The notes below the pieces were generated by a model that saw only the letters and a program-made list of their open reading frames with translations, did no database searches and was not told the origin of the DNA. A stretch of 15,946 nt of DNA, taken from IMG/VR virus record IMGVR_UViG_2645728048_000025. One strand, given 5' to 3'. The DNA comes from a virus. Taxonomy: Duplodnaviria; Heunggongvirae; Uroviricota; Caudoviricetes. Positions 1 through 13,926 of this stretch are shown here, one piece after another; within the stretch, counting starts at the first letter, position 1; each line of letters opens with the position of its first letter. Position numbers and translations under genes: made by a program.

Positions 1-561
1 CAGAGCGTCATACAGCGGCTTAACAGTGCGTGACCAGGTGGGTTGAGTAAGGTTTGGGATTAGCATCGTTACAGCGCGATATGCGGCGCTTGCTGGCATC
101 CTTGAATAGCCGACGCCTTTGCATCTTCCGCACTCTTTCTCAACAACTCTCCCCCACTGCTCCGTTTTGGCTATATCAACCGCACGGCCTGTACCGTGAC
201 AATCTCTGCATCTTGCTCCCGGCGTCGCAGCACTACGGCAATAATCCGCATAAGCGAATGTTGCGAGCACTTGCAGTACCTTTGCCTTAGTATTTCCTTC
301 GAGCTTTGCCACACCACGGTATTTCCCCGATACCTTGTGTGCAAATTGCATCAGATAGTTGATAGCCTTTTGTTTGTCGTTCTGGCTGAGTTCATGCTTA
401 CCGCAGAATGCAGCCATTCCGAATCCGGCTTGTGATTGCGCCATCCCCATAGCAGCCATCACATCAGTACCGGAAAGAGAGTCAGAAGCCGTAGCCCGTG
501 GTGAGTCGCTCATCATCGGGCTTTTTGGCGAATGAAATTTAGCTACGCTTTCGAGTCTCAT
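1..561 (-). CDS. Q: Late-gene antiterminator Q (lambda-type), partial; C-terminus lies beyond the window start
   Basis: Minus-strand translation from ATG at 561 reads MRLESVAKFHSPKSPMMSDSPRATASDSLSGTDVMAAMGMAQSQAGFGMAAFCGKHELSQNDKQKAINYLMQFAHKV..., which matches lambda Q as I recall it. Not in the ORF track because it runs off the window edge. Start overlaps the upstream small ORF stop (ATGA). Confidence 0.85.
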   Translation of the reverse strand, partial: MRLESVAKFHSPKSPMMSDSPRATASDSLSGTDVMAAMGMAQSQAGFGMAAFCGKHELSQNDKQKAINYLMQFAHKVSGKYRGVAKLEGNTKAKVLQVLATFAYADYCRSAATPGARCRDCHGTGRAVDIAKTEQWGRVVEKECGRCKGVGYSRMPASAAYRAVTMLIPNLTQPTWSRTVKPLYDAL

Positions 562-674
562 GGCCTTCCCCTTTTGCCCTGTTTGACCATCAGGACGCCG
601 TTAACTATTACGTGACGCTCGCCTTTGCTGTCTCGGTTGTACTTGAGCACTGTTCCTCTTGCGCAGGAAAGCAT
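558..674 (-). CDS. Small ORF (38 aa) between rusA and Q, MLSCARGTVLKYNRDSKGERHVIVNGVLMVKQGKRGRP; function unknown
   Basis: Hand translation of the minus strand; stop overlaps the Q start codon (ATGA). Weak RBS. Occupies the slot where lambdoid phages carry a small gene between rusA and Q. Confidence 0.35.
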   Translation of the reverse strand: MLSCARGTVLKYNRDSKGERHVIVNGVLMVKQGKRGRP

Positions 675-742
675 CCTTGCCACTTCGGTCTGATTGCCTC
701 GTGTCTAGATAAGAAGCTCTGGTATCGTTTGAATTGTGGCGT

Positions 743-1105
743 TCATACGTTCTCCAGTTCGGTGATTTTTATTCCAAGCCTTCCGCCTGGTACTTTCACG
801 CCACGAATTACGCGAATGTCATCGAATTGCTCGTCGTCTTCCGCAAATCCGGCGTGGATAAGGGAGTCGAGTAAACCTTTCAGGATGTTATCGAGGTCGC
901 GGCGGCGGGAGTCTGGAACGTCTGCGATGACTTTGATACGGAGTCGTGATTTGGTGAAAATGTCTAACTTGAGTTGGCGGATGATTTGCTGAACGTCTTT
1001 TCGGTATTTCTGGCCTTTATCGCTGATGTAGTATTGGCTTCCCCGTCTTCGCCAGTAGGTGTTCACCGACGGCGGGTAAGGAAGCACAAACTGATATTCT
1101 TTCAT
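743..1105 (-). CDS. rusA: RusA Holliday-junction resolvase
   Basis: 120-aa ORF MKEYQFVLPYPPSVNTYWRRRG... is a typical RusA family N-terminus; stop overlaps the next downstream start (ATGA); position upstream of Q as in lambdoid prophages. Confidence 0.88.
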   Translation of the reverse strand: MKEYQFVLPYPPSVNTYWRRRGSQYYISDKGQKYRKDVQQIIRQLKLDIFTKSRLRIKVIADVPDSRRRDLDNILKGLLDSLIHAGFAEDDEQFDDIRVIRGVKVPGGRLGIKITELENV

Positions 1106-1392
1106 GGCTTAATCTTCCCCTCCTTCAGCAGGATCGCCTGCGTCCTGATCACGCCTTCGAGGTGATAAAGTCTGGCGTCTTTGTTGTCGAGATTATGGGT
1201 GCGTCGGTCGATTTCATCGTGACACGCGCTACAAGCCCATGCGCCGATCAGGTCGTCAGGCTTCATTCCAGTTCCGCAAATTCCAGCCATCCGGTAATGT
1301 GCCAGAACTGTAGTTTCAGGATTGCCATTGCATACGCCGTAAATACGTACCTGGCATTCTCTGCCGCGCGCTTCTTTGCGTAGGTTAGCCAT
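1102..1392 (-). CDS. ybcO: YbcO-like small Cys-rich protein (DUF1364-type, putative nuclease)
   Basis: 96-aa ORF with several Cys/His (CQVRIYGVCNG ... CSACHDEIDRR); lies directly upstream of rusA with ATGA overlap, as ybcO does in DLP12-type prophages (recalled). Confidence 0.6.
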   Translation of the reverse strand: MANLRKEARGRECQVRIYGVCNGNPETTVLAHYRMAGICGTGMKPDDLIGAWACSACHDEIDRRTHNLDNKDARLYHLEGVIRTQAILLKEGKIKP

Positions 1393-2114
1393 TAAGCAGC
1401 CTCCCCTGTTACTTTCAGCATTCTGTTATCGAGCAGCTTTCTGGTCAGCCACTGTTGACCACGCCCGGTGATTTTTGTGGTGAACGATATCTGTATTCCG
1501 TGATTTGTGTTGACCGCTGTTTCTTTCACTGTGAAATAGCCGCGCTCCATATATTCCTGCATTGGCACATTGCGCCGGGAACCTGAAGCAATAAGGATTT
1601 TGTGATCGCGCATCCACGCAAACAGTTTGTTTGGACCAATTCCAACAACCTTTGCAAAGTTTCCAATCAAAATTCCGCTGGCCTCGCCAACGCGATCGGC
1701 AAACTCAACTTTAGGTGCGACAATTGCGAGCTGGTTTTCCAGTTGCATTTTCTGCTCAGCAAGATCGGCAGCAAGGCGCAACGCTTCCGGTAGCGTTTTG
1801 GGGATATTAACCGCAGCTTCTTCAAGATCTCGCCAGCGGTCAACAAGGCGAGCGGTGAACTCTGGCGACAACTGGGCAACAACGACAATACTGTCTCGCT
1901 TACCTTGTTCGCCCTCGAAGACGTAATGCTCGTACTGAACATTGAACCCTAAGTTATTGATTCTTTCGGAAACCTCAATTTGAGGAAGCCGGATAACACC
2001 ATTTTTAGCCAGCGTTTCTATGGTACGTTTCACATTGTCATGGCGCTTACCCACCAACTCAGCGATTTCAATGCTTGTCATTTTGATGGCATTGCCATTT
2101 ATTAACTCATTCAT
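1392..2114 (-). CDS. Phage regulatory protein, Rha-family N-terminal domain with KilAC-type antirepressor C-terminal domain
   Basis: 240-aa ORF; N-terminus MTSIEIAELVGKRHDNVKRTIETL resembles Rha-family regulators; C-terminal half (GNFAKVVGIGPNKLFAWMRDHKILIA...) resembles KilAC antirepressor domains. Start overlaps the NinF-like stop. Confidence 0.75.
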   Translation of the reverse strand: MNELINGNAIKMTSIEIAELVGKRHDNVKRTIETLAKNGVIRLPQIEVSERINNLGFNVQYEHYVFEGEQGKRDSIVVVAQLSPEFTARLVDRWRDLEEAAVNIPKTLPEALRLAADLAEQKMQLENQLAIVAPKVEFADRVGEASGILIGNFAKVVGIGPNKLFAWMRDHKILIASGSRRNVPMQEYMERGYFTVKETAVNTNHGIQISFTTKITGRGQQWLTRKLLDNRMLKVTGEAA

Positions 2115-2277
2115 CGTCTTCTTCCTCGTACATTGAGCTATTCGGATCGCTCATCAGTTCTGCGCAGCAATCGGAGCACACGTGAACTTCCAGCACATGC
2201 AGCTTCTGACCGCAGTTAGCGCACGTTAAAGCTCGCTCGACACTTCCTTGTTCGTAACTTCGATTTTGGTCAATCAC
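2107..2277 (-). CDS. ninF: NinF-like small zinc-ribbon protein (56 aa, GTG start)
   Basis: Hand translation: [56 protein letters not shown], matching my recollection of lambda NinF ([24 protein letters not shown]...). Below the 60-aa cut-off of the ORF track. GTG start overlaps the NinE stop (GTGA); stop overlaps the antirepressor start. Confidence 0.5.
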
Positions 2278-2456
2278 CTTGTTTTCCTCGCACGTTCTCT
2301 AAGCCACCGGATATCCCACAGGTGAGCCGTGTAGTTGAAGGTTTTTACGTCAGATTCTTTTGGGATTGGCTTGCGTTTATTTCTGGAGCGTTTCGTTGGA
2401 AGGTATTTGCAGTTTTCGCAGATTATGTCGGTGATACTTCGTTGCTGTCGCCTCAT
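2274..2456 (-). CDS. ninE: NinE family protein (60 aa)
   Basis: Internal ATG of the 90-aa track ORF, preceded by AGGAGG; product [64 protein letters not shown] overlap with the methyltransferase stop. Confidence 0.6.
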
Positions 2457-2980
2457 TCCGCCCTCCTGACGCCCTGCCCGATCGCCATCAATGCCGCTTT
2501 GGATACGGTAGTAAACATCCGTCGAGGACTGATGAACGGTCGCCAAATCAGCAGCATGGAGCCTTTGCTGTTTCCCTTCTTCTCCAGCCCTGTCGATGGT
2601 TCGATAAAATTAATCCGTCCATCAGTGATAATGCGAACTTCGTCGACACTCTCCAGAGCCTTGCTGAACCATCCGACTGACATATCCTCTGGCACAAGCA
2701 TCACTACCGTCTGTCGCTGTCGTATGCACTGCTCAGCGGCTTTTTCCACCCACGGCCTGATATTGCTGTACGGTGGGTTATTCCAGATTGCACCGTGGCT
2801 TACCCACTCAGAATTGAGCGCGTCGTCGGCCTCAGTTAGCCAGTGAGCACACAGAGCATTTTTGTCGCTCGCTGCCGAATCCAGCCAGAATCCAAACTCA
2901 ATATCCAGTGCATCAAAAAGCCAAAGCGGCGTTTGCCAGCAGTCCTTGTCGTGTGATGGCGTATTTGATTTGATAGTCAT
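2453..2980 (-). CDS. Phage-type DNA N6-adenine methyltransferase (orphan, no cognate endonuclease seen)
   Basis: NPPY motif ([10 protein letters not shown]), characteristic of N6-adenine methyltransferases. Start chosen at MTIKSNT (ATG 2980, AGGGAGAG RBS) because it overlaps the NinB stop; the track start at 3007 would overlap NinB by 31 nt. Confidence 0.78.
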
Positions 2981-3423
2981 GCAGCTCTCCCTTTTCGTTG
3001 TGACCATTCATACTCTCGCCAGGAGTCATCACTCCACCGCACGTTGCGCTCTGAGCCGAACCAGAACATGATTTCGATAAGCTCAGTCATGCTGGCCTTC
3101 CGCATTTTGCTGGTACGCACGCCAAGCATGACAACGCCACCGTCGATACCAGGCACACTTCGTTGCTCCAGTTTTTTGGTCTTAAGCCACAGGGCAGTGA
3201 ACAGGTCTTTCCAGTCTTCCGGCGCCAGCCGTTGACCATGCCATAGCACCTGACGCGAAACATCGTTCAGCATCGGCCACATACGGTCATTCTGCGCTTT
3301 GCTGCGCTTGGGTTCTTTAACGTGGACTTCGTGGGGTGACTTGTCGTCGATGGGTAGTGAGAGAATGGCGTCTATGGCGTTATTTCTGATTGCTTCGTTG
3401 CGAAGCAGAAAGGTTTGCTTCAT
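2977..3423 (-). CDS. ninB: NinB (Orf-family recombination mediator)
   Basis: From the internal start MKQTFLLRNEAIRNNAIDAILSLP ... [19 protein letters not shown]; collinear with lambda NinB as recalled. The track ORF begins 34 codons upstream at a non-ATG start. Confidence 0.8.
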   Translation of the reverse strand: MKQTFLLRNEAIRNNAIDAILSLPIDDKSPHEVHVKEPKRSKAQNDRMWPMLNDVSRQVLWHGQRLAPEDWKDLFTALWLKTKKLEQRSVPGIDGGVVMLGVRTSKMRKASMTELIEIMFWFGSERNVRWSDDSWREYEWSQRKGRAA

Positions 3424-3616
3424 CTCCTGCTCTCCGGTTCCATTTTTCAGCCGCCGCAGCAACTGATGGTGCCCATGCCCCCCTGGCTTCACAGAGGTCA
3501 CATTCTGCATAGCCCCACACATCAATATTTATTCCGGCCTCAACCCACAGACGAGCATTACCGCCGCAAAACGGACATTCTTTTAGCTTTGGCTGGGTTA
3601 ATGATAGGTCGCTCAT
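3380..3616 (-). CDS. Lar-family restriction-alleviation protein (78 aa)
   Basis: MSDLSLTQPKLKECPFCGGNARLWVEAG...AAAEKWNRRA; the CPFCGG ... AWNRR pattern is typical of Lar-family proteins. ATG at 3616 preceded by AAGGAG. The 3' end overlaps the ninB start by about 44 nt. Confidence 0.6.
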   Translation of the reverse strand: MSDLSLTQPKLKECPFCGGNARLWVEAGINIDVWGYAECDLCEARGAWAPSVAAAAEKWNRRAGDEANLSASQRSNQK

Positions 3617-3626
3617 GCTCACTCCT

Positions 3627-3842
3627 TCACTTAAAATCCAGACTCCGGATAATTCTGTTGCGCTGAAACTCATTGTTGAGTTTGAACAACCGTCGAAGAA
3701 CACGGTCACGCGGATAGCGTCGTGCGGCAGGTGAATGCTCATACAACTCATCAAGCGGCAAACTGGACGATGAACGATACCGATACCAACGCACCAACTC
3801 TTCACGAAAATTAGCCCTGACAAGCTCAGCTATCGTACTCAT
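3627..3842 (-). CDS. Hypothetical protein (71 aa), basic and Arg-rich
   Basis: ORF MSTIAELVRANFREELVRWYRYR... with GAGGAGG about 9 nt upstream of the ATG. No recognisable family. Confidence 0.5.
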   Translation of the reverse strand: MSTIAELVRANFREELVRWYRYRSSSSLPLDELYEHSPAARRYPRDRVLRRLFKLNNEFQRNRIIRSLDFK

Positions 3843-3974
3843 TTCTTAAAACCTCCTCAAACGCATTCTGACGCATTTTTCATTCTCGCTGCTTATCGGC
3901 ATGCCTTGCACGTGCTTACCTCACCACAGAGCGATTGTGATGCCTTAAAAGCGATTTATTGAAGTGATATTTGC

Positions 3975-4254
3975 TTAATCGAAATTCTTTTCTTTGATTC
4001 CTGCGGCCCTGATGGCTTTCATTACTGCAATTACCGTTTTGTCACGCCCATCCTCATAACCCATCGCATAAGCACCTTCTTCACCATCTTTCCAAAGGTC
4101 GTCATTCGATTCGGGCCAGTCGATATCCAGTTCAATAGCAGAGCGCGATGCCTGCCATATCACCCAGGCAAACTCTTTTAATTCATCGTCTCCCGTGAAC
4201 TGGCTTTTGTCTTTTGACCACCAGTTTTCAAACTGTCGGTAGCTATCGTTCACT
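3975..4254 (-). CDS. Hypothetical acidic, Trp-rich protein (about 92 aa, GTG start)
   Basis: Track ORF 3975..4268 starts at TTG inside the terminator T-tract; the GTG at 4254 preceded by GGGGGAGAGGGAA is a better start. No recognisable family; first gene after the tR2-like terminator. Confidence 0.45.
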
Positions 4255-4265
4255 TCCCTCTCCCC

Positions 4266-4298
4266 CAAATAAAAAGGCCTGCGATTACCAGCAGGCCT
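4266..4298 (-). terminator. Rho-independent terminator after the helicase gene (tR2 analogue)
   Basis: Perfect 8-bp stem AGGCCTGC / GCAGGCCT with an 8-nt loop, followed on the minus strand by TTTTTATTT; sits 29 nt downstream of the helicase stop. Confidence 0.65.
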
Positions 4299-4326
4299 GT
4301 TATTAGCTCAGTGATGTAGATGGTCA

Positions 4327-5763
4327 TCAGAATCCTCCTTTCTTCTTGGACTGCGGTTCCTCGCGTTCACGGCGGCGCATTTCAGCAGACTGTTGGTCTG
4401 TGTCATAAATAGCGCCATTTGCCTGTATGCAATACACCGTGCCGGTATTGCCATGACGATTGAGGCGAAGGATTAGTTCGGTTTCACCAGGAGGAACGCT
4501 GTCATCAAAAGCACCTTCACGATGGATCCCCACCCAATAATCGCAATCCTGTTCAATCTGCCCTGTATCTCGTGAGTCACTTGGTAATGGGCGTTTATTG
4601 GTTCGGCTTTCCAGTGCGCGGTTAAGCTGTGTCAGAAGCACAACAACGCAATCAAGCTCTTTGGCAAGGTTCTTCAGTCCTTTGGTGATCATGCCGTAAG
4701 CAAGGTCGTTGCGATCGGCCTTCTCAGCAGTCATTAGTGTCAGGTAATCGACCAGAATCATGCCAACACATCCTTTTTCTCGCTTGATTCGACGGCTTTC
4801 GCTGACGATTTGAGCCAGAGATAATCCCGGCGTGTCGTCGATGTAAAGCAGGTCGATTTCACTCAAGCGATTGGCTGTTTCGATCGCCCTGTTGAAGTCA
4901 CCATCGTAATCACCCTGATAGCCGTCATCAGCGTCATTTGTCGCCGGAAGGTAAAAAATATTCGGGTTAACACCTGACTTCTGTCCCACCAGTTTTTCCA
5001 GTATCTGGTCACCTGGCATTTCAAGGCTGAACATCAGAGCGGGCTTTTTCTCATGCACTGCACAGTTGATTGCCATCTGGCTGTATAGCGTCGTTTTCCC
5101 CATCTTAGGGCGAGCGCCAATGACAAACAAAGAGCCTTTCACCAGACCTTTCGGTGACAGCATCCTGTCCAGCGATGGGATCCCTGTGCTCATTCCCCGT
5201 TGTTCGCCTGATGGGTCAAATCGCTTCTCAAGGTCGCTAACCCAGTCTTCCATGACCTCACCAAATGAGCGAAGGCCGCGACGCGATCCGGTTTTTGCAT
5301 GGTCTGTCAGTTGCGTGAAAATCGCCTGAATAGCTTCGTACTTCTGCGTTGCAGTCATTCCATTGCGGGAATAGAGCAATTCCGTCGCTTCAGTCATGCG
5401 GTTGATGGCGTAGCGTTCCATTGCGGTTTCACGAACCTGCATTGCATAGGCAACGATGTTTGCTGCGCTTGGCGTGTTCTTTGCGATCTCAGCGATATAA
5501 GCAAAACCGCCAACAGACGCCGTTAACGATTTACGCTCCAGTTCATCGAAAAGCGTCAGGCCATCTACTGGCTTTTGCTCCCGGTGCATTCTGGTTATTT
5601 CTTCGAAAAGGATTTTGTGTGGTCGGCCGTAAAATGAATCAGGCTTCAGCATCGCCAGAACTTTCTGGACGCGCTCACTGCTGTCATCATCCAGAAGCAA
5701 TCCACCAATCACCGCCTGCTCTGCCTCGATGCTATGGGGCGGCGCATAAAAATTATCGGTCAT
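4327..5763 (-). CDS. Replicative DNA helicase, DnaB family (P22 gene 12-like)
   Basis: Walker A GARPKMGKTT and DnaB-like layout over about 478 aa. ATG at 5763 (MTDNFYAPPH) preceded by GAGGGTGAA is preferred over the track's GTG start at 5778; it overlaps the O-like stop by 11 nt. Confidence 0.88.
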   Translation of the reverse strand: MTDNFYAPPHSIEAEQAVIGGLLLDDDSSERVQKVLAMLKPDSFYGRPHKILFEEITRMHREQKPVDGLTLFDELERKSLTASVGGFAYIAEIAKNTPSAANIVAYAMQVRETAMERYAINRMTEATELLYSRNGMTATQKYEAIQAIFTQLTDHAKTGSRRGLRSFGEVMEDWVSDLEKRFDPSGEQRGMSTGIPSLDRMLSPKGLVKGSLFVIGARPKMGKTTLYSQMAINCAVHEKKPALMFSLEMPGDQILEKLVGQKSGVNPNIFYLPATNDADDGYQGDYDGDFNRAIETANRLSEIDLLYIDDTPGLSLAQIVSESRRIKREKGCVGMILVDYLTLMTAEKADRNDLAYGMITKGLKNLAKELDCVVVLLTQLNRALESRTNKRPLPSDSRDTGQIEQDCDYWVGIHREGAFDDSVPPGETELILRLNRHGNTGTVYCIQANGAIYDTDQQSAEMRRREREEPQSKKKGGF

Positions 5764-6514
5764 CGTGTTCACCCTCACGAACTTTCAGGTAGGTATTATC
5801 GTTAAGCAGGAAATCAAATCCCTTTTTGTGCCAGACGGTTCCGCGATGATGGTTTGGGCGCTCTTCGAACATCCATCGGCAATTTTCGCCTACGTAGCTC
5901 AAATAATTTCTCCAGTCCTGCATCGTGAACCCATGCCCGTCAAGCTGGCGGGTTATCACTCCGGCTTTGCGCCAGAACGTTCGGATCTGGTTTTTACGCT
6001 TGTCATTCAGTGCGCGGATTCTTGGCGCTTCAGGAAGGATTTCGTGGTAAGCATCGACAACATCCTGACAGCTAACGGAAGGTTTTTTCTTGTCAGACTT
6101 TTTGTCTGCTGTGGCACTCTCTAATACGTCAGTATTAGAGATATTATTTATATTATTGTTTATGGACAACCGTTGGACAACCGTTGGACAATTTTTTGCC
6201 TGAAAATCGTCATATTTAACGATTGTAAACAGGCTAAATTTCTTCCCCATCGAGCAAATATTAAGCATCCCTTTCGACTCAAAAGTCCGTAATAAGCTCC
6301 GAACTTTGTTGTCGGGGATGAATGTTTCTCTGACCAGCGACGGGCGTCCAGTTATCATCTGACCGCGATCAACAGTTATCGGACCGATATCCGTATTGAC
6401 GACAGTAGATTCGTGATTAGCCTTGAGGATTAAGTGAAGCCAAAGATGTACTGCCTGAGAGTCCTTATAGAGCCTGCTGTCCATAAACTGGCGGTGTATA
6501 GAGACATACCCCAT
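5753..6514 (-). CDS. Replication initiator, lambda O-like / P22 gene 18-like
   Basis: Start chosen at MGYVSIHRQFMDSRLYKDSQAVHLWLHLILKA (ATG 6514 preceded by CAGGAGG), a typical replication-protein-O N-terminal domain. An Asn/Ile-rich linker (SINNNINNISN) is encoded by the AT-rich ori segment. It sits upstream of the helicase. Confidence 0.8.
   Translation of the reverse strand: MGYVSIHRQFMDSRLYKDSQAVHLWLHLILKANHESTVVNTDIGPITVDRGQMITGRPSLVRETFIPDNKVRSLLRTFESKGMLNICSMGKKFSLFTIVKYDDFQAKNCPTVVQRLSINNNINNISNTDVLESATADKKSDKKKPSVSCQDVVDAYHEILPEAPRIRALNDKRKNQIRTFWRKAGVITRQLDGHGFTMQDWRNYLSYVGENCRWMFEERPNHHRGTVWHKKGFDFLLNDNTYLKVREGEHDDR
6118..6195. repeat. Candidate origin of replication inside the O-like gene: palindrome, AT-rich tract, 11-bp iterons
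   Basis: 24-bp perfect palindrome TCTCTAATAC-gtca-GTATTAGAGA (6118-6141); AT-rich tract 6141-6162; tandem TGGACAACCGT at 6163-6173 and 6174-6184 plus a partial third copy TGGACAATTTT (6185-6195). Confidence 0.55.
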
Positions 6515-6563
6515 ACTGGATGCCTCCTGATGTTGTACAGGGTTATGCCTGTAATCAGCTAAC

Positions 6564-6725
6564 TTAACGACGCCCATGTTTCACTCCTGCTTTGGCTAGT
6601 CTGTAAACACCAACAAGGCGCTCTGCGAACGCCCTGTTATTTGCTGCGGCTACCACTAATCCCTCAGGTGAATCAGGGTGTCGAATCTCTTCTTTTTCCT
6701 GGTATTTCTTACGACGTTTTGTCAT
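6564..6725 (-). CDS. Small basic ORF (53 aa) between cII and the O-like gene; uncertain
   Basis: MTKRRKKYQEKEEIRHPDSPEGLVVAAANNRAFAERLVGVYRLAKAGVKHGRR with AGGAG 5 nt upstream of the ATG. Its start codon coincides with a CATAAT -10-like hexamer on the opposite strand, so the interval may be regulatory instead. Confidence 0.3.
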   Translation of the reverse strand: MTKRRKKYQEKEEIRHPDSPEGLVVAAANNRAFAERLVGVYRLAKAGVKHGRR

Positions 6726-6759
6726 AATTACTCCTGTGGATTGATCCAGTCTTTCTACA

Positions 6760-7038
6760 TCAGGCCTCGAAGAATTCGCCGTTCTTCGGGGCTTTTTCTT
6801 TTGTCAGCATTCTGGCTACTTTCTTAGCCAGTTCCGCCAACTCCTCGTCTTCAACACCCCATTCAAGAACAGCAAGAAGCATTCCCATTTTGGGGATGAA
6901 GCTGTCTTTCCATCGAGAAATTTGCGATTCATTAATCCCTAACGCGTCGGCAACCTTTCGCTGACCACGTACAGCAATTCGATTCAGGATGTTGCTTGTA
7001 ATTGCATTCGCTTTCTTGCGAGTACTTGTAAGTTCCAT
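6760..7038 (-). CDS. cII: CII transcriptional activator (lambda cII / P22 c1 homologue, 92 aa)
   Basis: From the internal ATG (MELTSTRKKANAITSNILNRIAVRGQRKVADALGINESQISRWKDSFIPKMGMLLAVLEWGV...); the ESQISRWK ... MLLAVLEWGV stretch matches lambda CII as I recall it. Confidence 0.85.
   Translation of the reverse strand: MELTSTRKKANAITSNILNRIAVRGQRKVADALGINESQISRWKDSFIPKMGMLLAVLEWGVEDEELAELAKKVARMLTKEKAPKNGEFFEA
6767..6802 (+). terminator. Plus-strand intrinsic terminator inside the 3' end of cII (antisense), OOP-RNA-like
   Basis: Stem CGAAGAA / TTCTTCG (6768-6774 / 6782-6788) with a 7-nt loop, then GGGC and TTTTTCTTTT. Antisense to the cII 3' end, the position of the OOP terminator in lambda. 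Confidence 0.45.
6992..7005 (+). promoter_or_regulatory. CII-binding motif TTGC-N6-TTGC, candidate PRE -35 region (transcription towards cI)
   Basis: TTGC (6992-6995), ttgtaa, TTGC (7002-7005) on the plus strand within the 5' part of the cII coding region, the arrangement of PRE in lambda. Confidence 0.45.
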
Positions 7039-7096
7039 ATGTAAGTATTTCCTTAACAAATAAGAAGTTATGCGCATCAACTTATGCGCGTTGTAT

Positions 7097-7139
7097 TCCC
7101 GCATTTCGGCGGGAATGAGGACCATGACTGTTAAAGAGC
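7097..7139 (-). promoter_or_regulatory. nutR: boxA GCTCTTTAACA plus boxB hairpin
   Basis: Minus-strand boxA (plus 7129-7139) and boxB TCCCGCCGAAATGCGGGA (plus 7097-7114), immediately downstream of cro; both elements identical to nutL. Confidence 0.7.
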
Positions 7140-7146
7140 GGTGTTG

Positions 7147-7341
7147 CTATTTGTTTTTCTTGTTGCTTGGGAAAGGACGAACTTCCTCTCCAATCACACT
7201 GCCATCAGGCTTTACCGTAACCATGATGTTACGGCCTGCCAGAATGGCCTTGCTGATAGCGCACTGGATTACACCAAAGTCACTGGCTGCTTTAGCCTGT
7301 CCATGGATTTTGGCGTAATCGGCAAGTGTCATTCGAATCAT
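7147..7341 (-). CDS. cro: Cro repressor (64 aa)
   Basis: [62 protein letters not shown], collinear with lambda Cro (C-terminal FPSNKK). ATG at 7341 preceded by GGAGAG. Confidence 0.85.
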
Positions 7342-7370
7342 ATGCACTCTCCGTTATTAACCATGAACAA

Positions 7371-7399
7371 AGAATACTACAGGTATTCAAAGCAATCAA
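7371..7399 (-). promoter_or_regulatory. PR promoter candidate: -35 TTGATT, 17-nt spacer, -10 TATTCT
   Basis: Minus-strand hexamers with 17-nt spacing, overlapped by operator sites 1 and 2; the same -10/operator arrangement recurs at PL. Confidence 0.5.
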
Positions 7400-7436
7400 T
7401 ACTCAGGGTATTTTTAGTTTAAGTACCTTAGCTATT
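7372..7436. promoter_or_regulatory. OR operator triplet, consensus AATAC-N5-GTATT
   Basis: Site 1 GAATACtacagGTATTC (7372-7388, perfect 17-bp dyad); site 2 AATACtcaggGTATT (7398-7412); weaker site 3 AGTACcttagCTATT (7422-7436). Centre spacing about 24-25 bp, between divergent cro and cI. Confidence 0.65.
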
Positions 7437-7447
7437 AGAATTAAGCT
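7413..7447 (+). promoter_or_regulatory. PRM candidate giving a leaderless cI transcript
   Basis: -10-like TAGAAT at 7436-7441 lies 6 nt upstream of the cI ATG with no Shine-Dalgarno; weak -35-like TTTAGT at 7413-7418 abuts operator site 2, as OR2 abuts the PRM -35 in lambda. Confidence 0.4.
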
Positions 7448-8164
7448 ATGGAAAATAAAAAATCACTGACGACAGAACAGCTCGAAGACGCTAAGCGGCT
7501 TAAGGCTTTGTATGAGTCAAAAAAGAAAGAATTGGGAATAACCCAATACTCAATCGCTGATGAACTGGGTATCACCCAAGGAGCGGTAGGGCATTATCTT
7601 AATGGCAGAAACGCGCTAAACGTTGAGGTTGCATCTGGTTTTGCACGATTGTTGCAAGTCTCAATTGCTGATTTTAGCCAGTCAATTGCTGCCAAGGTTG
7701 CAGAACAGGCAGAAAGCCTTAAGAGCGATGCCAACGTAAGGTATGCAGGGGAATACAGAGCAGGAAAGAGGTATCCGGTGTTAAGCAGTATCCAGGCTGG
7801 CTCGTGGTGTGAAGCATGCGAACCATACACCATTAAAGACATAGATGTTTGGCTTGAGTCTGACGCGCATATTCAAGGTAATGCGTTCTGGCTTAAAGTG
7901 GAAGGTGATTCAATGACGGCACCGGTTGGGTTAAGCATTCCAGAGGGAACATTCGTTCTTTTCGATACCGGAAGGGAGGCGATCAACGGCAGCTTGGTCA
8001 TAGCAAAACTTTCTGACTCTAACGAAGCAACATTCAAGAAGCTGATAATCGACGGCGGAAATAAATACCTCAAGGGACTTAATCCTGCATGGCCTCTCGT
8101 GCCAATCAATGGAAACTGCAAGATTATAGGCGTTGCAATTGAGACAAAACTAAGGCTGGTTTGA
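7448..8164 (+). CDS. cI: CI repressor (HTH N-terminal domain plus S24 LexA-like autopeptidase domain)
   Basis: HTH region (ITQYSIADELGITQGAVGHYLNG), putative Ala-Gly cleavage site in YPVLSSIQAGSW, catalytic Ser in EGDSM and Lys in FKKL; collinear with lambda CI. Confidence 0.9.
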   Translation: MENKKSLTTEQLEDAKRLKALYESKKKELGITQYSIADELGITQGAVGHYLNGRNALNVEVASGFARLLQVSIADFSQSIAAKVAEQAESLKSDANVRYAGEYRAGKRYPVLSSIQAGSWCEACEPYTIKDIDVWLESDAHIQGNAFWLKVEGDSMTAPVGLSIPEGTFVLFDTGREAINGSLVIAKLSDSNEATFKKLIIDGGNKYLKGLNPAWPLVPINGNCKIIGVAIETKLRLV

Positions 8165-8181
8165 TCACGCAAGGGGCGATT

Positions 8182-8550
8182 ATGGTTGGAACCGCTATAG
8201 CAAGCTTTTTGGGGATGTTGGCAATCTCAACAATTTACGGCTTAGCGCATGCTTTTATTGCGAAATCTCTATCAGAAAAAATAAGCCAGGCTTGGGCGCA
8301 TAGATCTGCTCGTTTCATGATTCTAGTGGTCATAGCAATACAAGGGATATCTGCATTTATCCTCTATGGATCAAGCTTATACCTGTTGTATCAAGGCGCG
8401 ACATTTACGCCTTACACCAGTGATTACGGAACTCTATACGATGGTAGTGAAGACATCTCTATGGCTTGGATCGTCTTTGGTTTATCTATGGCCGTGTCTG
8501 TTGTAGCAGACATCATTAAGGTAATTCTCGTCTTAACCTTCGCTGACTAA
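8182..8550 (+). CDS. Small integral membrane protein (about 122 aa) immediately downstream of cI; function unknown
   Basis: ATG at 8182 preceded by AAGGGG, 18 nt after the cI stop. Three long hydrophobic segments. Visibly more AT-rich than cI. Occupies the rexAB/sieB-type slot. Confidence 0.6.
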   Translation: MVGTAIASFLGMLAISTIYGLAHAFIAKSLSEKISQAWAHRSARFMILVVIAIQGISAFILYGSSLYLLYQGATFTPYTSDYGTLYDGSEDISMAWIVFGLSMAVSVVADIIKVILVLTFAD

Positions 8551-8636
8551 CCCATAATCCCGGCAGCAATAGCTATCGGGATCCACTTCACATATCCCGC
8601 ATAAAAAGCACTGAACAAGCAGACACCGAAAAAATA

Positions 8637-8723
8637 AATATCCTTTGTATTCATTCGCTTATCATTATTTCACCAAAAATAAATACCTTGTGTATTTACA
8701 CAATAAAATACCTACAGTATTCT
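8637..8723. promoter_or_regulatory. OL operators and PL promoter candidate
   Basis: Operator matches AAATACcttgtGTATTT (8681-8697, perfect dyad), AATACctacaGTATT (8707-8721), and a weaker AATATccttTGTATT (8637-8651). PL candidate -35 TTTACA (8695-8700), 17-nt spacer, -10 TATTCT (8718-8723), overlapped by operators exactly as at PR. Confidence 0.55.
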
Positions 8724-8769
8724 TTAGCCATCAGCAGAACGCTTGAAGCCAAACGGAACAGATTGGCAG

Positions 8770-8810
8770 GCTCTTTAACATTGATGGGATTGTCCCGCCG
8801 AAATGCGGGA
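8770..8810 (+). promoter_or_regulatory. nutL: boxA GCTCTTTAACA plus boxB hairpin
   Basis: boxA 8770-8780; boxB TCCCGC-cgaaat-GCGGGA 8793-8810; about 40 nt downstream of the PL candidate and upstream of N; identical to nutR. Confidence 0.7.
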
Positions 8811-8917
8811 ACCAAAGAGTAGTTGGCTTTGGGGTGACGTGAAGTGCAGCTGCACGACGGCAACCGGAAGATAAGCACCCGGCGCGTCACCGCCAAAGTC
8901 AATCATCGGAGGTCAAC

Positions 8918-9190
8918 ATGACAGTAGTCATTACATATCTGGCTGACGATAACGCCAGAAATCGCCGCAGAGCACGCAGACAGGCTCAACGTGAACAGGC
9001 AATGCAAGAGCAGCAACTGGCGCGAAAAATTGCGCTAAAGCTCTCTGGTTGCGTCAGAGCAGATAAAGCAGCATCACTCGGAAGCCTTCGCTGCAAGAAG
9101 GCAGATGAATGCAGTGGAAGTATTTGCCTGCCAAACGTAGCTCTTTACGCGGCAGGCTACCGTAACTCCAAACAACTGACAGCAAGATGA
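8918..9190 (+). CDS. N: N-like transcription antiterminator (arginine-rich motif)
   Basis: 90-aa ORF with N-terminal ARM (DDNARNRRRARRQAQREQAM); GGAGG 5 nt upstream of the ATG; first gene downstream of PL/nutL. Confidence 0.72.
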   Translation: MTVVITYLADDNARNRRRARRQAQREQAMQEQQLARKIALKLSGCVRADKAASLGSLRCKKADECSGSICLPNVALYAAGYRNSKQLTAR

Positions 9191-9250
9191 CTTGTGTTGG
9201 TCGCCAGAAAATGAAATTAGGCAGCAAACCACTTATTTGAGGACTGATAC

Positions 9251-9493
9251 ATGAGAGTAAAAACTATGGGCGCAAGCCCATTAAGTGGTCGTATTTTTCA
9301 AGGAACATTAAACACTGAAAAAGGAATGTGGGTGGGAAAGAAAGAAGATGTAACCGAACAGGCAGTTAAGGCAGTAGCTGAACACATGATGATAAAAGAC
9401 CAGAAATATGCATACGAAACGAAGGATGGCAAATGGCTGATAATAAGTCATCAAATAGTTGATAAATTACCAGAAGAGTTTATTGCTGATTAA
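9251..9493 (+). CDS. Hypothetical protein (80 aa) directly after N
   Basis: ORF with GAGGA upstream; no recognisable family; followed by a hairpin and an intrinsic terminator. Confidence 0.45.
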   Translation: MRVKTMGASPLSGRIFQGTLNTEKGMWVGKKEDVTEQAVKAVAEHMMIKDQKYAYETKDGKWLIISHQIVDKLPEEFIAD

Positions 9494-9621
9494 AATTATT
9501 TTGGCATAAACAACAGAATAAACACTGCACTGTGTATTCATTCCAACGAGTGAATACACTGAGCAATGTCGCTCGTAACTAAACAGGAGCCGACTTGTTC
9601 TGATTATTGGAAATCTTCTTT

Positions 9622-9645
9622 GCCCTCCAGTGCGAGGGCTTTTTT
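9622..9645 (+). terminator. Rho-independent terminator in the PL operon (tL-like)
   Basis: Stem GCCCTC / GAGGGC (9622-9627 / 9634-9639) with a 6-nt loop, followed by TTTTTT (9640-9645). Confidence 0.6.
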
Positions 9646-9711
9646 ATATGCATACCAATAACGCTTCACTTGAGGCGTTTTCGTTATGCAATCAAACAGA
9701 AGGAGCATCCT

Positions 9712-9882
9712 ATGCAACAGTTCGCTATTGCAGGGGCGGCATCGGTTCGCCCTTTCAACCCGATTTTATCGGTGCAGCATTCACGAAAAAATATTTTAAC
9801 CGGAGCAGACTTTAAACAACCAAGAATGAAAAGTTTGCTCGAAAAGCTTTGGGATATTTTGAAACAACAAGGCCGTCCATGA
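9712..9882 (+). CDS. cIII: CIII-like protein (56 aa; putative FtsH-inhibitor that stabilises CII)
   Basis: MQQFAIAGAASV ... SLLEKLWDILKQQGRP, resembling lambda CIII as recalled (MQYAIAG ... RLIDILNQPG); AAGGAG 7 nt upstream of the ATG. Confidence 0.55.
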   Translation: MQQFAIAGAASVRPFNPILSVQHSRKNILTGADFKQPRMKSLLEKLWDILKQQGRP

Positions 9883-10037
9883 GTTTTACAGATAACTGGT
9901 CAGACGAAGAATTCATTCGTCAGATGAAAGAATTAATCGGTAACGAAGGAGATATTCATGTCACTTGCAACCACAGTGAAGGAGAGCAAGTTACAGAGAC
10001 GCATGTACACGCAGAAAGCTCTCTGGTATCGCCATAA
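9879..10037 (+). CDS. Small acidic protein (52 aa) translationally coupled to cIII; Kil-position ORF
   Basis: ATGA overlap with the cIII stop; MSFTDNWSDEEFIRQMKELIGNEGDIHVTCNHSEGEQ...; no recognisable family. Confidence 0.4.
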   Translation: MSFTDNWSDEEFIRQMKELIGNEGDIHVTCNHSEGEQVTETHVHAESSLVSP

Positions 10038-10136
10038 TGGCGACCGCGAAGGAATGCGGGTATGCCTTAATTTGTCCCGAGTCGAAGTATTAAATCAGCG
10101 TTATTTCCTTGGGCCTTGTCCATTCTGAGGTGAATT

Positions 10137-10844
10137 ATGGATTTGAACAAATTCGATGAGCCATTCAGCCCTGAAGATATCGAATGGCGAATACAGCAAA
10201 GCGGTAAAACACGCGATGGCAAGGTGTGGGCTATGGTGCTGGCTTATGTCACGAACCGGGCAATCATGAAACGCCTGGACGATGTTTGCGGCAAAGCAGG
10301 ATGGCGCAATGAATACCGCGATATTCCCAACAACGGCGGCGTTGAATGCGGCATATCAATAAAGATTGATTCCGAATGGGTAACCAAATGGGATGCTGCT
10401 GAAAACACGCAGGTAGAAGCCGTCAAAGGTGGTCGTTCCGGTGCAATGAAGCGCGCTGCCGTTCAGTGGGGAATCGGTCGGTATCTGTATAACCTTGAGG
10501 AAGGTTTCGCACAAACATCTCTCGATAAAAAGCAGGGGTGGCACAGGGCAAAACTGAAGGATGGAACAGGATTTTACTGGCTCCCTCCATCGCTTCCGGG
10601 ATGGGCAATCCCAGCATCAGATAACAAACCATCACCAGAAAATACCAACCAGAAATCTCCATCGGTTGACTGCGAACAAATCCTGAAAGACTTCAGCGAT
10701 TATGCGTCAACAGAAACTGACAAGAAAAAACTCATCGAGCGTTATCAGCGTGACTGGCAATTAATGGCTGGCAATGAGGATGCGCAGGCTAAATGCGTTC
10801 AGGTAATGAGCATCAGAGTTAACGAACTAAAACAGGCGGCATAA
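10137..10844 (+). CDS. Single-strand annealing recombinase: Rad52/Sak-like core with an Erf-like C-terminal tail
   Basis: Core motif AVQWGIGRYLYNLEEG is typical of Rad52-family annealing proteins; the C-terminal 60 aa (ILKDFSDYASTETDKKKLIERYQRDWQLMAGNEDAQAKCVQVMSIRVNELKQAA) resembles the C-terminus of P22 Erf as recalled. GAGGTGA RBS. Confidence 0.72.
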   Translation: MDLNKFDEPFSPEDIEWRIQQSGKTRDGKVWAMVLAYVTNRAIMKRLDDVCGKAGWRNEYRDIPNNGGVECGISIKIDSEWVTKWDAAENTQVEAVKGGRSGAMKRAAVQWGIGRYLYNLEEGFAQTSLDKKQGWHRAKLKDGTGFYWLPPSLPGWAIPASDNKPSPENTNQKSPSVDCEQILKDFSDYASTETDKKKLIERYQRDWQLMAGNEDAQAKCVQVMSIRVNELKQAA

Positions 10845-11351
10845 ATGGCAAGCAGAGGCGTAAATAAGGTGATTATCCTTGGTCGGGTAGGACAAGACCC
10901 GGAAGTTCGATACTCACCATCAGGAACAGCGTTCGCTAACCTGACAATAGCCACGTCAGAACAATGGCGAGATAAAAATACTGGCGAGCAAAAGGAATTG
11001 ACTGAATGGCATCGTGTTGCTGTATCCGGGAAACTGGCTGAGGTCGTGGGGCAGTATGTGAAAAAAGGTGATCAGATTTATTTCGAGGGAATGCTGAGAA
11101 CCAGAAAGTGGAAAGACCAGTCAGGGCAAGACCGTTACACAACCGAGGTTCATGTCGGAATTAATGGCGTGATGCAGATGCTTGGCGGCATTGGCGACAG
11201 CAAACAACAAGCAGCCAGCAGGCAATCACAGAAGCCACAGCAGCAATCATCACCAGCACAACACAACGAACCTCCGATGGATTTTGACGACGATATACCC
11301 TTTGCACCAGTAACTCTCCCCTTCCCTCGTCACGCTATTCACGCAATTTAA
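10845..11351 (+). CDS. ssb: Single-stranded DNA-binding protein with a 15-aa extension beyond the DDDIPF tip
   Basis: OB-fold N-terminus ([39 protein letters not shown]), Gln-rich linker, MDFDDDIPF, then [15 protein letters not shown] before the stop. Confidence 0.85.
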
Positions 11352-11364
11352 TCAGGAGAAAATC

Positions 11365-11661
11365 ATGCCAGCGCCTCTGTATGGTGCGGACGACGCGCGC
11401 CGCTGTTCCGGCAATTCCGTATCGGAGGTGCTGGATAAATTCAGAAAAAACTACGACCTGATAATGTCGCTACCGCAGGAAACGAAAGAGGAAAAGGAAT
11501 TTCGCCACTGTATATGGCTTGCAGAGAAAGAAGAACGCGAGCGAATTTACCAGACATCAATCCGACCATTCCGCAAAGCCACATATACCCACTTCCCTGA
11601 ATATATCGACCCGCGCCTGCGTAATTACCGCTCACGCTATGGCGCTATCAGTAATGACTGA
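11365..11661 (+). CDS. Hypothetical protein (98 aa)
   Basis: ORF with AGGAG upstream; no recognisable family. Confidence 0.5.
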
Positions 11662-11671
11662 GGAATTTACC

Positions 11672-11839
11672 ATGAGAGGACTTGCATACAATCCCGGAAT
11701 TCTTCCGGCAGAAATGATTATTCGCCAACGCGTAAAGCCAATGCCATCGATAGAGGAATTGCTTAAGAGAAATTCTTTTCCATCAGTGAATCAAAACAAA
11801 TATCTGAATGCGATGTGGCGTAAAGGAGGCAAGCAGTGA
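11672..11839 (+). CDS. Hypothetical small protein (55 aa)
   Basis: Internal ATG of the track ORF 11519..11839, preceded by GAGGAA; begins 11 nt after the previous stop. Confidence 0.4.
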
Positions 11840-12090
11840 GTAATTCCGCACGACTACAGCTTGGTTTTTCACCGCTATCAAAAACTATCATGCTGGCAAA
11901 AATGCGCGATGTTGAAGGTGGACGTATGCGCGTTGGCAATGATCCAGGTCGTGATGTTACCAATGAGGCTGCTCAATTGGTGTGGCGACTGGTCATGGCT
12001 GAAGGTGGTGAGATCGCGTGGGAGCTGGATGATGGTTCTCGCATGGTGTTGAAGGCAGAAAAGCAGGAGGCAACCAGTGAGCAAGATTGA
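11836..12090 (+). CDS. Hypothetical protein (84 aa, GTG start)
   Basis: GTG preceded by AAGGAGG, overlapping the previous stop (GTGA). Confidence 0.45.
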
Positions 12091-12721
12091 TTATCAAAAG
12101 CTTCGTGAAATCGCTGAAAAAACAAAAATTGCCGGTGAAGCACCTGTAATGCCTTGCGATCAGCGAATTAATGCGCTTAACGATTTTATGAAGCACTTTT
12201 CGCCAGATATCGCGCTGGCATTGTTGGATGAACGGGAAAGAAACCAGCAATACATCAAAAGCCGCGATCAGGAGAACGAGGATATTGCGCTTACGGTTGG
12301 GAAGCTGCGCGTTGAGCTGGAAGGCAAAGACAGCAAAATAGCCAATCTTACCGCCGAACGCGATGCTCTTCGTGAAGGTGAGATGGGCGACGCTAGGCAT
12401 AGCAACACACGGGCCGCAGCTGATATCTACTTCCAACTGGTCGAGGAGTGCGAAATTCCTGCTGGCGGTTCTCTGGTCGAGTACGTTGACGATATGCGCG
12501 AGAAGCTGGAAGCCGCAGAGAAGCGCATTGCAGAGTTAGAAAGTGGTTCTCAGGCACAAAAGTTAGTTGAAGCAATCATTGTTGCGATAGAAAACGAACA
12601 GGAAAGGCTTTTTGATGAAGATTACCTAATGGATTCGAAAGAATGCATTGACGTAATTCGTGAAGAAGTAAAGCGATGGAATGATTCCCGCGCCGCTGGC
12701 ATTCGCATCAAAGGAGAGTGA
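12077..12721 (+). CDS. Ea22-like coiled-coil protein (214 aa, GTG start)
   Basis: N-terminus [17 protein letters not shown] resembles the conserved start of Ea22-like prophage proteins as recalled; central heptad-rich segment. AGCAGGAGG RBS. Confidence 0.55.
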   Translation: MSKIDYQKLREIAEKTKIAGEAPVMPCDQRINALNDFMKHFSPDIALALLDERERNQQYIKSRDQENEDIALTVGKLRVELEGKDSKIANLTAERDALREGEMGDARHSNTRAAADIYFQLVEECEIPAGGSLVEYVDDMREKLEAAEKRIAELESGSQAQKLVEAIIVAIENEQERLFDEDYLMDSKECIDVIREEVKRWNDSRAAGIRIKGE

Positions 12722-12722
12722 T

Positions 12723-12914
12723 ATGGACGGACAAATATCAATCGTTCGACCAGGAGCATGTGACGATCGCGAAATACGAATAATTATTCGTCTGGCAATG
12801 GGGAAAACAATAACTGCTCTCATTACCCCAGAAAATCTCGCATTAGCATTAACAGGAAAGTCAGACCTGCCAGTAGAGCTAAAGCTGCGAAATGTTGAGA
12901 TTAAGGTGAAATAG
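12723..12914 (+). CDS. Hypothetical small protein (63 aa)
   Basis: ATG preceded by AAAGGAGAG, one nt after the previous stop. Confidence 0.45.
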   Translation: MDGQISIVRPGACDDREIRIIIRLAMGKTITALITPENLALALTGKSDLPVELKLRNVEIKVK

Positions 12915-12916
12915 CT

Positions 12917-13561: not shown

Positions 13562-13657
13562 AAGCGAAGCTTATACATATCTTTTACATCAGCAATCTAT
13601 TGTTAATCTCCAATCAATGTTACGTTGTCATCTCACTCATGCTTTGGAGGTAGTGAT

Positions 13658-13837
13658 ATGTCTTGTCCAAAATGCGGTTCTGGAAATATTGCAAAAGAAA
13701 AAACAATGCGTGGATGGTCTGGAGATTATGTGTGCTGCGATTGCGGATACAACGACTCTAAAGACGCATTTGGAGAGCGTGGTAAAAACGAGTTTGTTAA
13801 AATTAATAAAGAAAGCGAAGGCAACGAAAAAAGCTAA
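13658..13837 (+). CDS. Small zinc-ribbon protein (59 aa)
   Basis: MSCPKCGSGNIAKEK ... YVCCDCGYND with paired CxxC motifs; GGAGG upstream; Lys/Glu-rich tail. Confidence 0.5.
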   Translation: MSCPKCGSGNIAKEKTMRGWSGDYVCCDCGYNDSKDAFGERGKNEFVKINKESEGNEKS

Positions 13838-13902
13838 TTTATTTATTCATATATGAAAACAATGTAACCAATATTCGAATTGAAGAACTGAAAGAACACC
13901 AA

Positions 13903-13926
13903 GCCGCCTGATGGCGGTTTTTTATT
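13903..13926 (+). terminator. Rho-independent terminator closing the plus-strand early-left gene block
   Basis: GCCGCC-tgat-GGCGGT followed by TTTTTTATT. Confidence 0.6.

Follow-up and report, generated by a model that had tools for sequence, protein, structure and literature searches.

Layout and distribution of the nin block

Within the window, by which we mean the whole stretch of 15,946 nucleotides that was analysed, the minus strand carries between positions 1392 and 3616 a run of six translationally coupled genes. From the 3616 end these encode a Lar-family zinc-ribbon protein, NinB, an N6-adenine methyltransferase of the PF05869 family, NinE, NinF and a Rha/KilAC protein. Position 3616 is base one of the Lar-like ATG and position 1392 the final base of the Rha/KilAC stop codon. 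An earlier sequence-only reading had singled out the Lar-like, methyltransferase and Rha/KilAC genes, all on the minus strand within these limits. Its limits, genes and identities were right, as domain and family searches matched all three products far beyond chance level.

All six genes have a Shine-Dalgarno sequence ahead of them, and gene starts overlap the preceding stops as ATGA, GTGA or TAATG, or by 44 nt in the case of the Lar-like gene and ninB. NinB, the Orf recombination mediator (148 aa, 2977..3423; PF05772, E 9e-49), is identical to VT2-Sakai H0104 at 147 of 148 positions. NinE (60 aa, 2274..2456; PF05322, E 1.2e-42) and NinF (56 aa with a GTG start, 2107..2277; PF05810, E 7.7e-14; phrog_672, E 1.6e-35) were assigned in the same way. 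A DUF7301 protein (71 aa, 3627..3842, minus strand; PF23975, E 3.8e-26) is encoded upstream of the block, and the same searches identified YbcO, RusA and NinH downstream of it. A tR2-like intrinsic terminator (4275..4298, minus strand; a consensus match only) separates the helicase gene from the nin genes; it is composed of an 8-bp stem, in which six pairs are G-C, with TTTTATTT after it.

Among phage records, 423 match the 2225-bp block and 99 of these cover 80% or more of it; of 5426 complete E. coli genomes, 2289 match it at least in part, mostly at 90-99% identity. The top matches are Stx phages, with 97-98% identity to the nin regions of VT2-Sakai and AU5Stx1. This is a standard early-gene (nin) block common to thousands of lambda-like and Shiga-toxin prophages of E. 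coli. The three flagged genes are real but had been catalogued before, and the predicted GATC target of the methyltransferase is already published for M.EcoVT2Dam. All functions named for the block are transferred by homology and should be read as predictions.

The orphan methyltransferase and its predicted target

The methyltransferase (175 aa, 2453..2980, minus strand), whose start codon at 2980 shares an ATGA with the stop of NinB, matches the Dam family PF05869 with an E value of 1e-64 (217.8 bits; cut-off 28.1) and the TIGR01712 equivalog with 263.6 bits (cut-off 97.05) in an alignment that spans the whole model (positions 1-165 of 165). By this full-length match it belongs to the PF05869/TIGR01712 group, which includes M.EcoVT2Dam, HP1 Dam and T1 Dam, and its best PADLOC matches are models of orphan methyltransferases. 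A PDB sequence search with the protein returned no match. It is identical to M.EcoVT2Dam of VT2-Sakai at 172 of 175 positions (98.3%). The three differences (S9A, R87Q and E175A) lie outside the catalytic motif IV, NPPY, which is intact at residues 68-71 (codons 2768..2779, minus strand, read from the sequence and its translation).

M.EcoVT2Dam is described as GATC-specific in PMC6602927, which cites Radlinska & Bujnicki 2001. The target site had been called unknown; this does not hold, as the present enzyme is 98.3% identical to this characterised one, and by that identity it is predicted to methylate the adenine of GATC. The designation as an orphan holds, since no endonuclease gene adjoins the methyltransferase gene, its neighbours being those for NinB and NinE. 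YbcO was considered as a cognate nuclease and rejected: its gene is three genes away, and VT2-Sakai and AU5Stx1 carry NinG instead with the same dam. Comparison of phages showed this dam with either NinG or YbcO/RusA downstream.

A GATC mark duplicates that of host Dam and therefore adds little protection against E. coli restriction; against the type I and type III systems of E. coli, the phage enzyme gives no new protection. Its likely role is to top up GATC methylation during fast phage replication. Phage Dam would add methylating capacity while replication of the phage DNA outpaces host Dam, so that the DNA of the progeny would carry full Dam methylation and resist m6A-sensitive enzymes cutting at or across GATC. 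In phage phi24B, expression of an identical dam shifts significantly upon induction.

A rival explanation, to which we give somewhat less than an even chance, is that the enzyme serves phage physiology and not anti-restriction, either through full GATC methylation in burst replication or by stabilising lysogeny. Stable lysogeny of 933W reportedly needs host Dam, and the work on phi24B includes the speculation that phage Dam may supplement host Dam in lysogens. GATC is depleted in the prophage window (37 sites observed, 62-72 expected) and in its pL operon (7 observed, about 23 expected), suggesting that GATC status matters to the phage. Set against this, dam is dispensable, as many lambdoid phages do without it, and lambda itself is not known to carry it. 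Regulatory roles of phage orphan methyltransferases, for example at P1 pac, are noted in a 2025 review. The literature searched contained no direct test of what an additional GATC methylase does physiologically when the host is Dam+. On a physiological role, full GATC methylation would avoid SeqA sequestration or MutH nicking.

Roi and the Lar-family protein

The Rha/KilAC protein (240 aa, 1392..2114, minus strand) combines a Rha-type N-terminal domain (Phage_pRha, PF09669, 35.2 bits; cut-off 29.9) with a C-terminal KilAC/ANT domain (PF03374, E 2.9e-32). It aligns end to end with HK022 Roi (209/241 identical, 87%); identities are 98.8% with HK140 Roi and 86% with HK97 Roi, and VT2-Sakai Roi shares 201 of 240 residues. 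On these alignments it is a Roi orthologue in the usual slot of Roi, after ninF and before ninG or ybcO/rusA, as in HK140, VT2-Sakai, AU5Stx1 and E. coli prophages. The proposal that the gene had been inserted as cargo is contradicted by the same position of roi in HK022, HK97, HK140 and the Stx phages.

Roi is described as a DNA-binding protein that contributes to lytic growth when IHF is mutated (PMC3430580), and no antirepressor activity of Roi is reported in the literature searched. Annotation nevertheless labels it "anti-repressor Ant" (phrog_63), a homology-derived name that, for Roi-type Rha/KilAC proteins, is without experimental support. A Pfam scan returned ANT/KilAC, Phage_pRha and one sub-threshold match (HVO_A0114), and neither the N- nor the C-terminal domain of P22 Ant. 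The absence of these domains, and the fact that orthologues are described as DNA-binding or lytic-growth factors, speak against the description of the protein as antirepressor-type. A PDB sequence search with Roi gave no match. The homologue search for its alignment returned only close relatives, all at least 83% identical, and the AlphaFold2 model built from the resulting 15 sequences (mean pLDDT 46.4) was too poor for use.

Two candidate sites lie inside roi. One is an IHF-consensus match, AATCAATAACTTA, on the minus strand at 1950..1962, which is one of two matches to WATCAANNNNTTR in the window (0.89 expected, not significant alone). It is kept across three alleles, including those of HK022 and VT2-Sakai, within what is otherwise the most diverged part of the gene. 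The other is an allele-specific 13-bp palindrome, CCTCAAATTGAGG, at 1973..1985, 10 nt upstream of the IHF consensus. A custom palindrome scan showed that HK022 has another palindrome, CTGCATTGCAG, in those alignment columns, and a repeat scan of roi with 7-nt seeds gave weak repeats only. Clerget and Boccard reportedly located, in 1996, both a Roi binding site and an IHF site inside the roi gene itself. We infer that CCTCAAATTGAGG is a candidate Roi-binding site. Most likely, Roi would act at a site within its own gene, beside the conserved IHF consensus. With a low probability, roi alleles could also be self-contained specificity cassettes, with palindrome operator and IHF site embedded in a hypervariable, putative DNA-recognition segment.

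The Lar-family zinc-ribbon protein (78 aa, 3380..3616, minus strand) scores above the cut-offs of Lar_restr_allev (PF14354, 41.3 bits against 28.6) and TIGR03655 (62.3 against 39.6), and matches phrog_599 with an E value of 9e-39. It is identical to VT2-Sakai H0103 at 78 of 78 positions. Its four cysteines (C14, C17, C39 and C42) and the C-terminal WNRR motif (W59-N60-R61-R62) align with Rac RalR and a Salmonella homologue (50% identity). Over 58 aa, the protein shares 36% of its residues with Rac Lar/RalR, and its score against the RalR equivalog (NF007260), 27.6 bits, falls short of the cut-off of 113. The Lar label is thus a family-level call only: family membership, as first proposed, is borne out, and RalR-level identity is not. 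A PDB sequence search showed weak similarity to the eL43 zinc ribbon and nothing else. Six matches, from close relatives only, were found in the homologue search for the alignment, and the AlphaFold2 model (4-sequence alignment, pLDDT 52.5) was too poor for use.

The name "restriction alleviation" is likewise homology-derived for Lar-family proteins, and the activity of the founding and sole characterised member is itself disputed between alleviation or modification enhancement and a DNase toxin. Guo et al. 2014 (PMC4041452) described Rac RalR (= Lar) as a non-specific DNase toxin that does not inhibit restriction-modification. Our best guess for the present protein is a Ral/Lar-like modulation, in which it would act on replicated or recombinant DNA, not on incoming DNA, and shift type I enzymes of the EcoKI family towards modification. 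DUF7301 as its obligate partner was rejected, because four of five Salmonella Lar-family loci have no adjacent DUF7301. No functional test of the Lar-like protein or of Roi in Stx phages was found in the literature reached.

A probable delayed-early block and its counterparts

Following the lambda model, pR transcripts antiterminated by N after induction or infection would read through the tR2-like terminator (4298-4275), and the Lar-like protein, NinB, Dam, NinE, NinF and Roi would then be translated by start/stop coupling. Such delayed-early genes, placed downstream of a terminator, cannot affect incoming DNA ahead of the restriction enzymes. The suggestion that the Lar-like protein and the methyltransferase both protect incoming DNA is at odds with this position and with the duplication of the host Dam mark.

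The three flagged genes also assort independently among relatives and are therefore not a coordinated module. HK140 has Dam and Roi and no Lar-like gene; Salmonella prophages carry a Lar-family gene in the same slot and neither Dam nor Roi; and E. coli 23CRST032 has Dam and Roi without the segment for DUF7301 and the Lar-like protein. A close relative aligns to the window over 1-3424 and from 3967 on and not between, so that DUF7301 and the Lar-like gene share a segment of about 540 bp (3425-3966) that this relative is missing. As a mosaic, the nin block of this prophage combines segments of the HK140/HK97 type with others of the Stx-phage type. At a probability of roughly 85%, the sequence comparisons point to an ordinary delayed-early nin operon of a lambdoid E. 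coli prophage, in which the three genes would be independent, swappable accessory cassettes and not a system.

It is improbable that the three genes together form a counter-defence and cross-induction cargo, with the Lar-like protein and the methylase guarding DNA and the Rha/KilAC protein inactivating a heterologous repressor. The names favour such a cargo (Lar restriction alleviation, orphan methyltransferase, phrog_63 "anti-repressor Ant"), a 2025 review credits orphan methyltransferases of phages with a capacity to protect exported DNA, and the window is without a lambda-type Ral, present in a close relative, whose role the Lar-like gene could take. However, the predicted GATC target is already methylated by host Dam, delayed-early genes behind a terminator come too late for incoming DNA, Roi orthologues are described as DNA-binding or lytic-growth factors, P22 Ant domains were not detected, the three genes assort independently, and Lar's own activity is disputed.

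We regard with similar doubt the notion that the Lar-family gene is functionally tied to NinB, instead of or beside restriction alleviation, or that roi alleles carry their own operator. Lar-family alleles of E. coli and Salmonella prophages that are about 50% identical occupy the same slot and reach into ninB by the same 44 nt, and Rac lar adjoins recT.

We also give a low probability to the idea that the Lar-like protein cleaves DNA as a toxin of the RalR type, and is not an alleviation factor, with a use in host DNA damage or takeover in lytic growth: the DNase result of Guo et al. and the alignment of the RalR toxicity residues R49/N51/K52 with K58/N60/R61, identical or conservative, speak for it, whereas the low identity to RalR and the failed equivalog, the loss of RalR residues C14 and T37, and the estimate that 100-plus viable phage genomes carry the gene in translational coupling with ninB speak against. 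A RalR/RalA toxin-antitoxin pair was rejected, as the equivalog model was failed, the longest complementarity to RalA was 8 nt and the window had no Rfam match; no RalA-like antitoxin was found there.

The reading as an ordinary nin operon offers a correction of labels and not a discovery, and simple genetics on these genes would inform the biology of Stx phages. The nin region of VT2-Sakai/933W shares order and strand logic with the block (H0103, H0104/NinB, dam, ninE and roi, with DUF7301 upstream), at identities of 100% for the Lar-like protein, 99% for NinB, 98.3% for Dam and 97% for NinE. Between ninE and roi, VT2-Sakai has one more ORF (H0107) and lacks an annotated ninF; its roi is another allele, with 84% identity and divergence at residues ~22-65, and downstream NinG takes the place of YbcO and RusA. 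HK140, grouped with the nin regions of HK97, HK022 and HK620, has the identical order NinB-Dam-NinE-NinF-Roi-gp66(YbcO)-RusA-NinH-Q; it differs in having Ren upstream of NinB and neither the DUF7301 nor the Lar-like gene.

Rac Lar/RalR (b1348) resembles the Lar-like protein as a small CxxC...CxxC zinc ribbon with a C-terminal WN(K/R)R motif in the same Pfam/TIGRFAM family, and both genes adjoin recombination genes (recT in Rac, ninB here). In contrast, Rac lar lies in the pL/recET operon and not in a pR nin operon, and its RalA sRNA partner has no counterpart detected in the window. The P22-type Ant of phi24B and AU5Stx1 carries the same annotation label, "anti-repressor Ant", as Roi, which is without P22 Ant domains. 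In those phages, Ant has a gene of its own, which lies between ninE and ninF and is absent from the present block; the antirepressor tested in phi24B was the product of this P22-type ant gene and not Roi.

Gene order and operon structure

All genes in the left half of the window lie on the minus strand. Listed in the order of transcription, an O-like replication gene (5753-6577) and a DnaB-type helicase gene (4327-5778) are followed by a 97-aa ORF (3975-4268), DUF7301 (3627-3842), a Lar-family protein (3380-3616), NinB (2977-3423), an N6-adenine methyltransferase (2453-2980), NinE (2274-2456), NinF (2107-2277), a Rha/KilAC protein (1392-2114), YbcO (1102-1392), RusA (743-1105), NinH (about 558-746) and the antiterminator Q gene, which is cut by the left window edge. 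These gene calls are all backed by Pfam, PHROGs and NCBIfam with scores exceeding the curated cut-offs. The sequence-only reading described the Lar-like, methyltransferase and Rha/KilAC genes as anti-restriction and antirepressor cargo at 1392-3616, limits that fall exactly on the stop codon of the Rha/KilAC gene and the start codon of the Lar-like gene. This observation was confirmed, but its interpretation is only partly supported.

A Shine-Dalgarno sequence precedes each gene, and each start overlaps the preceding stop, which makes this a translationally coupled operon. Directly 3' of the helicase gene, there is a good match to an intrinsic terminator (4298-4275, minus strand) at the position of lambda tR2, so the three flagged genes are predicted to be delayed-early and dependent on N antitermination.

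The possibility that the Lar-like, Dam and Roi (Rha/KilAC) genes form one unit was rejected because they assort independently among relatives. In coliphage HK140, Dam and Roi are present but the Lar-like gene is missing. In Salmonella prophages, the same slot holds a Lar-family gene of 49% identity that overlaps ninB, and both Dam and Roi are missing; the adjacent DUF7301 is absent in four of five of these Salmonella loci. The related prophage of E. coli 23CRST032 shows 96% identity to the window over 1-3424 and lacks 3425-3966 (~540 bp, DUF7301/Lar-like). There, ninB is abutted by a phiTE_015-family gene, which is related to the 97-aa ORF and has the same 14-aa C-terminal tail. The three genes are accessory cassettes of the nin region that assort independently of one another.

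The Dam-type methyltransferase

The methyltransferase shares 172 of 175 residues with M.EcoVT2Dam, the dam product of the Stx phage VT2-Sakai, and all three substitutions (S9A, R87Q and E175A) are located outside the NPPY motif (residues 68-71). A methylome paper citing Radlinska and Bujnicki 2001 states that the target of M.EcoVT2Dam, 5'-GATC-3', is known, and regards copies with 99% identity as GATC enzymes (PMC6602927). Through this identity, the literature already answers what was initially taken to be an unknown target, and the methyltransferase is predicted to be GATC-specific. The proposed lack of a partner endonuclease was borne out: the gene is flanked by NinB and NinE, PADLOC orphan-MTase models match best, and the same dam is paired with different downstream nuclease modules across phages; the enzyme is an orphan.

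GATC is already methylated in every Dam+ E. coli, and the phage enzyme would therefore add no further protection against the type I and type III systems of E. coli, contrary to the suggested anti-restriction role. Plausibly, it may supplement host Dam in burst replication or, in other hosts, protect against m6A-sensitive enzymes cutting at or across GATC. In phage phi24B, expression of an identical dam gene changes significantly upon induction, and the authors speculate that phage Dam adds to the activity of host Dam, on which stable 933W lysogeny depends (PMC3342100). The prophage has fewer GATC sites than expected, with 37 observed versus 62-72 expected (window 1-15946) and 7 versus about 23 in the pL operon (8551-14600), whereas cscB, the host gene next to it, shows no depletion (6 versus about 5).

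The Rha/KilAC and Lar-like proteins

The Rha/KilAC protein is 98.8% identical to the HK140 "DNA-binding protein; Roi", 86% to HK97 Roi and 84% to VT2-Sakai Roi, and shares 209 of 241 residues with the HK022 roi product. HK022 Roi is "implicated in phage lytic growth" according to a comparative Stx-phage paper citing Clerget and Boccard 1996 (PMC3430580). We assign the protein as Roi based on these identities. Its gene occupies the usual roi slot of HK140, HK97, HK022 and VT2-Sakai and thus does not represent an insertion specific to this phage. The "antirepressor" label derives from the KilAC domain common to Roi and P1 Ant1/KilA, and a Pfam scan of the protein found no P22-Ant domains. The antirepressor investigated in phi24B is encoded by a different gene, an ant of the P22 type. 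In AU5Stx1/phi24B-type Stx phages, a 1.4-kb module (P22-type ant and a hypothetical gene) is found between ninE and ninF; it is absent at this junction in the window (2274-2277), where the two genes overlap by 4 nt.

Roi was reportedly described by Clerget and Boccard in 1996 as a helix-turn-helix DNA-binding protein with a binding site within roi itself, adjoining an IHF site, and is said to make HK022 IHF-dependent. The window has only two IHF-consensus matches, one of which lies within roi (1950-1962) and is kept in the HK022 and VT2-Sakai alleles despite falling where the gene is most diverged. Located 10 nt upstream is a palindrome, a candidate Roi site, that each allele has in its own version: it reads CCTCAAATTGAGG in the window and CTGCATTGCAG at the aligned position in HK022. 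The consensus and this allele-specific palindrome are suggestive of a fit to that description. The roi gene contains four perfect palindromes with 6-nt arms (2086-2098, 1973-1985, 1619-1633 and 1524-1536; about 0.7 expected by chance, as estimated), of which three recur in all or most of five alleles and one is allele-specific. AlphaFold models of Roi and the Lar-like protein had low confidence, and PDB sequence searches with Dam, Roi and the Lar-like protein were uninformative.

The Lar-like protein is identical to H0103 of VT2-Sakai and occurs in 119 phage-collection records, with an identity of 95% or more in nearly all of them; in annotated records among the matches listed, its gene overlaps ninB. 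In CP111102.1 (EDL933-Stx) and NC_010237.1 (Min27), the frame matches in two pieces (87-88% coverage), suggesting a frameshift or indel. Its membership in the Lar family stands, but kinship to the sole characterised member, Rac Lar (now annotated RalR), is distant, with 36% identity over 58 aa and 27.6 bits against the RalR equivalog cut-off of 113. King and Murray reportedly observed restriction alleviation by Lar in 1995. The function of Rac Lar/RalR is contested, as Guo et al. 2014 (PMC4041452) describe it as a DNase toxin without sequence specificity and with no inhibitory effect on restriction-modification. Some of the RalR toxicity residues are conserved in the Lar-like protein and others are not. 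No complementarity resembling RalA, the antisense sRNA antitoxin of RalR, was found in the window, and an Rfam search of the window gave no match. At 8551-10100, the pL operon of the window encodes no lambda-type Ral, whereas 23CRST032 has an annotated Ral there, a point favouring a Ral/Lar-like role. Our best guess is that the protein may modulate type IA enzymes in a Ral/Lar-like manner.

Relation to known lambdoid phages

A 129-aa ORF (8161-8550) immediately follows the CI repressor gene in the same orientation, a position typical of exclusion genes expressed in lysogens, for example rex. It gave a match to phrog_6534, a family of unknown function, but none in Pfam or PADLOC. The recombination module (10137-11661), comprising a Rad52/Erf-type recombinase, SSB and the Abc2 anti-RecBCD protein, is P22-like, in contrast to lambda Red. 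Between a TorI/excisionase-like gene (13969-14169) and cscB (14699-15946), which encodes the sucrose transporter of the host, lie about 500 bp with no integrase. The csc-side end of the prophage therefore has no int gene on this side, as in relatives.

The 2225-bp block matches 423 phage-collection records (99 covering at least 80% of it), and the best matches are Stx-converting phages with 97-98% identity. At least part of it is present in 2289 of 5426 complete E. coli genomes, including 440 with at least 80% in one place. VT2-Sakai has the same order as the window, annotated H0102, H0103, H0104 (NinB), dam, ninE and roi, and the order in the non-Stx HK140, NinB-Dam-NinE-NinF-Roi-gp66(YbcO)-RusA-NinH-Q, is exactly that of the window. 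This lambdoid/Stx-phage nin region is already known and very common. Any single E. coli genome covers at most 77% of the whole window, and the prophage combines known segments into a new mosaic, which is the usual situation in lambdoid phages.
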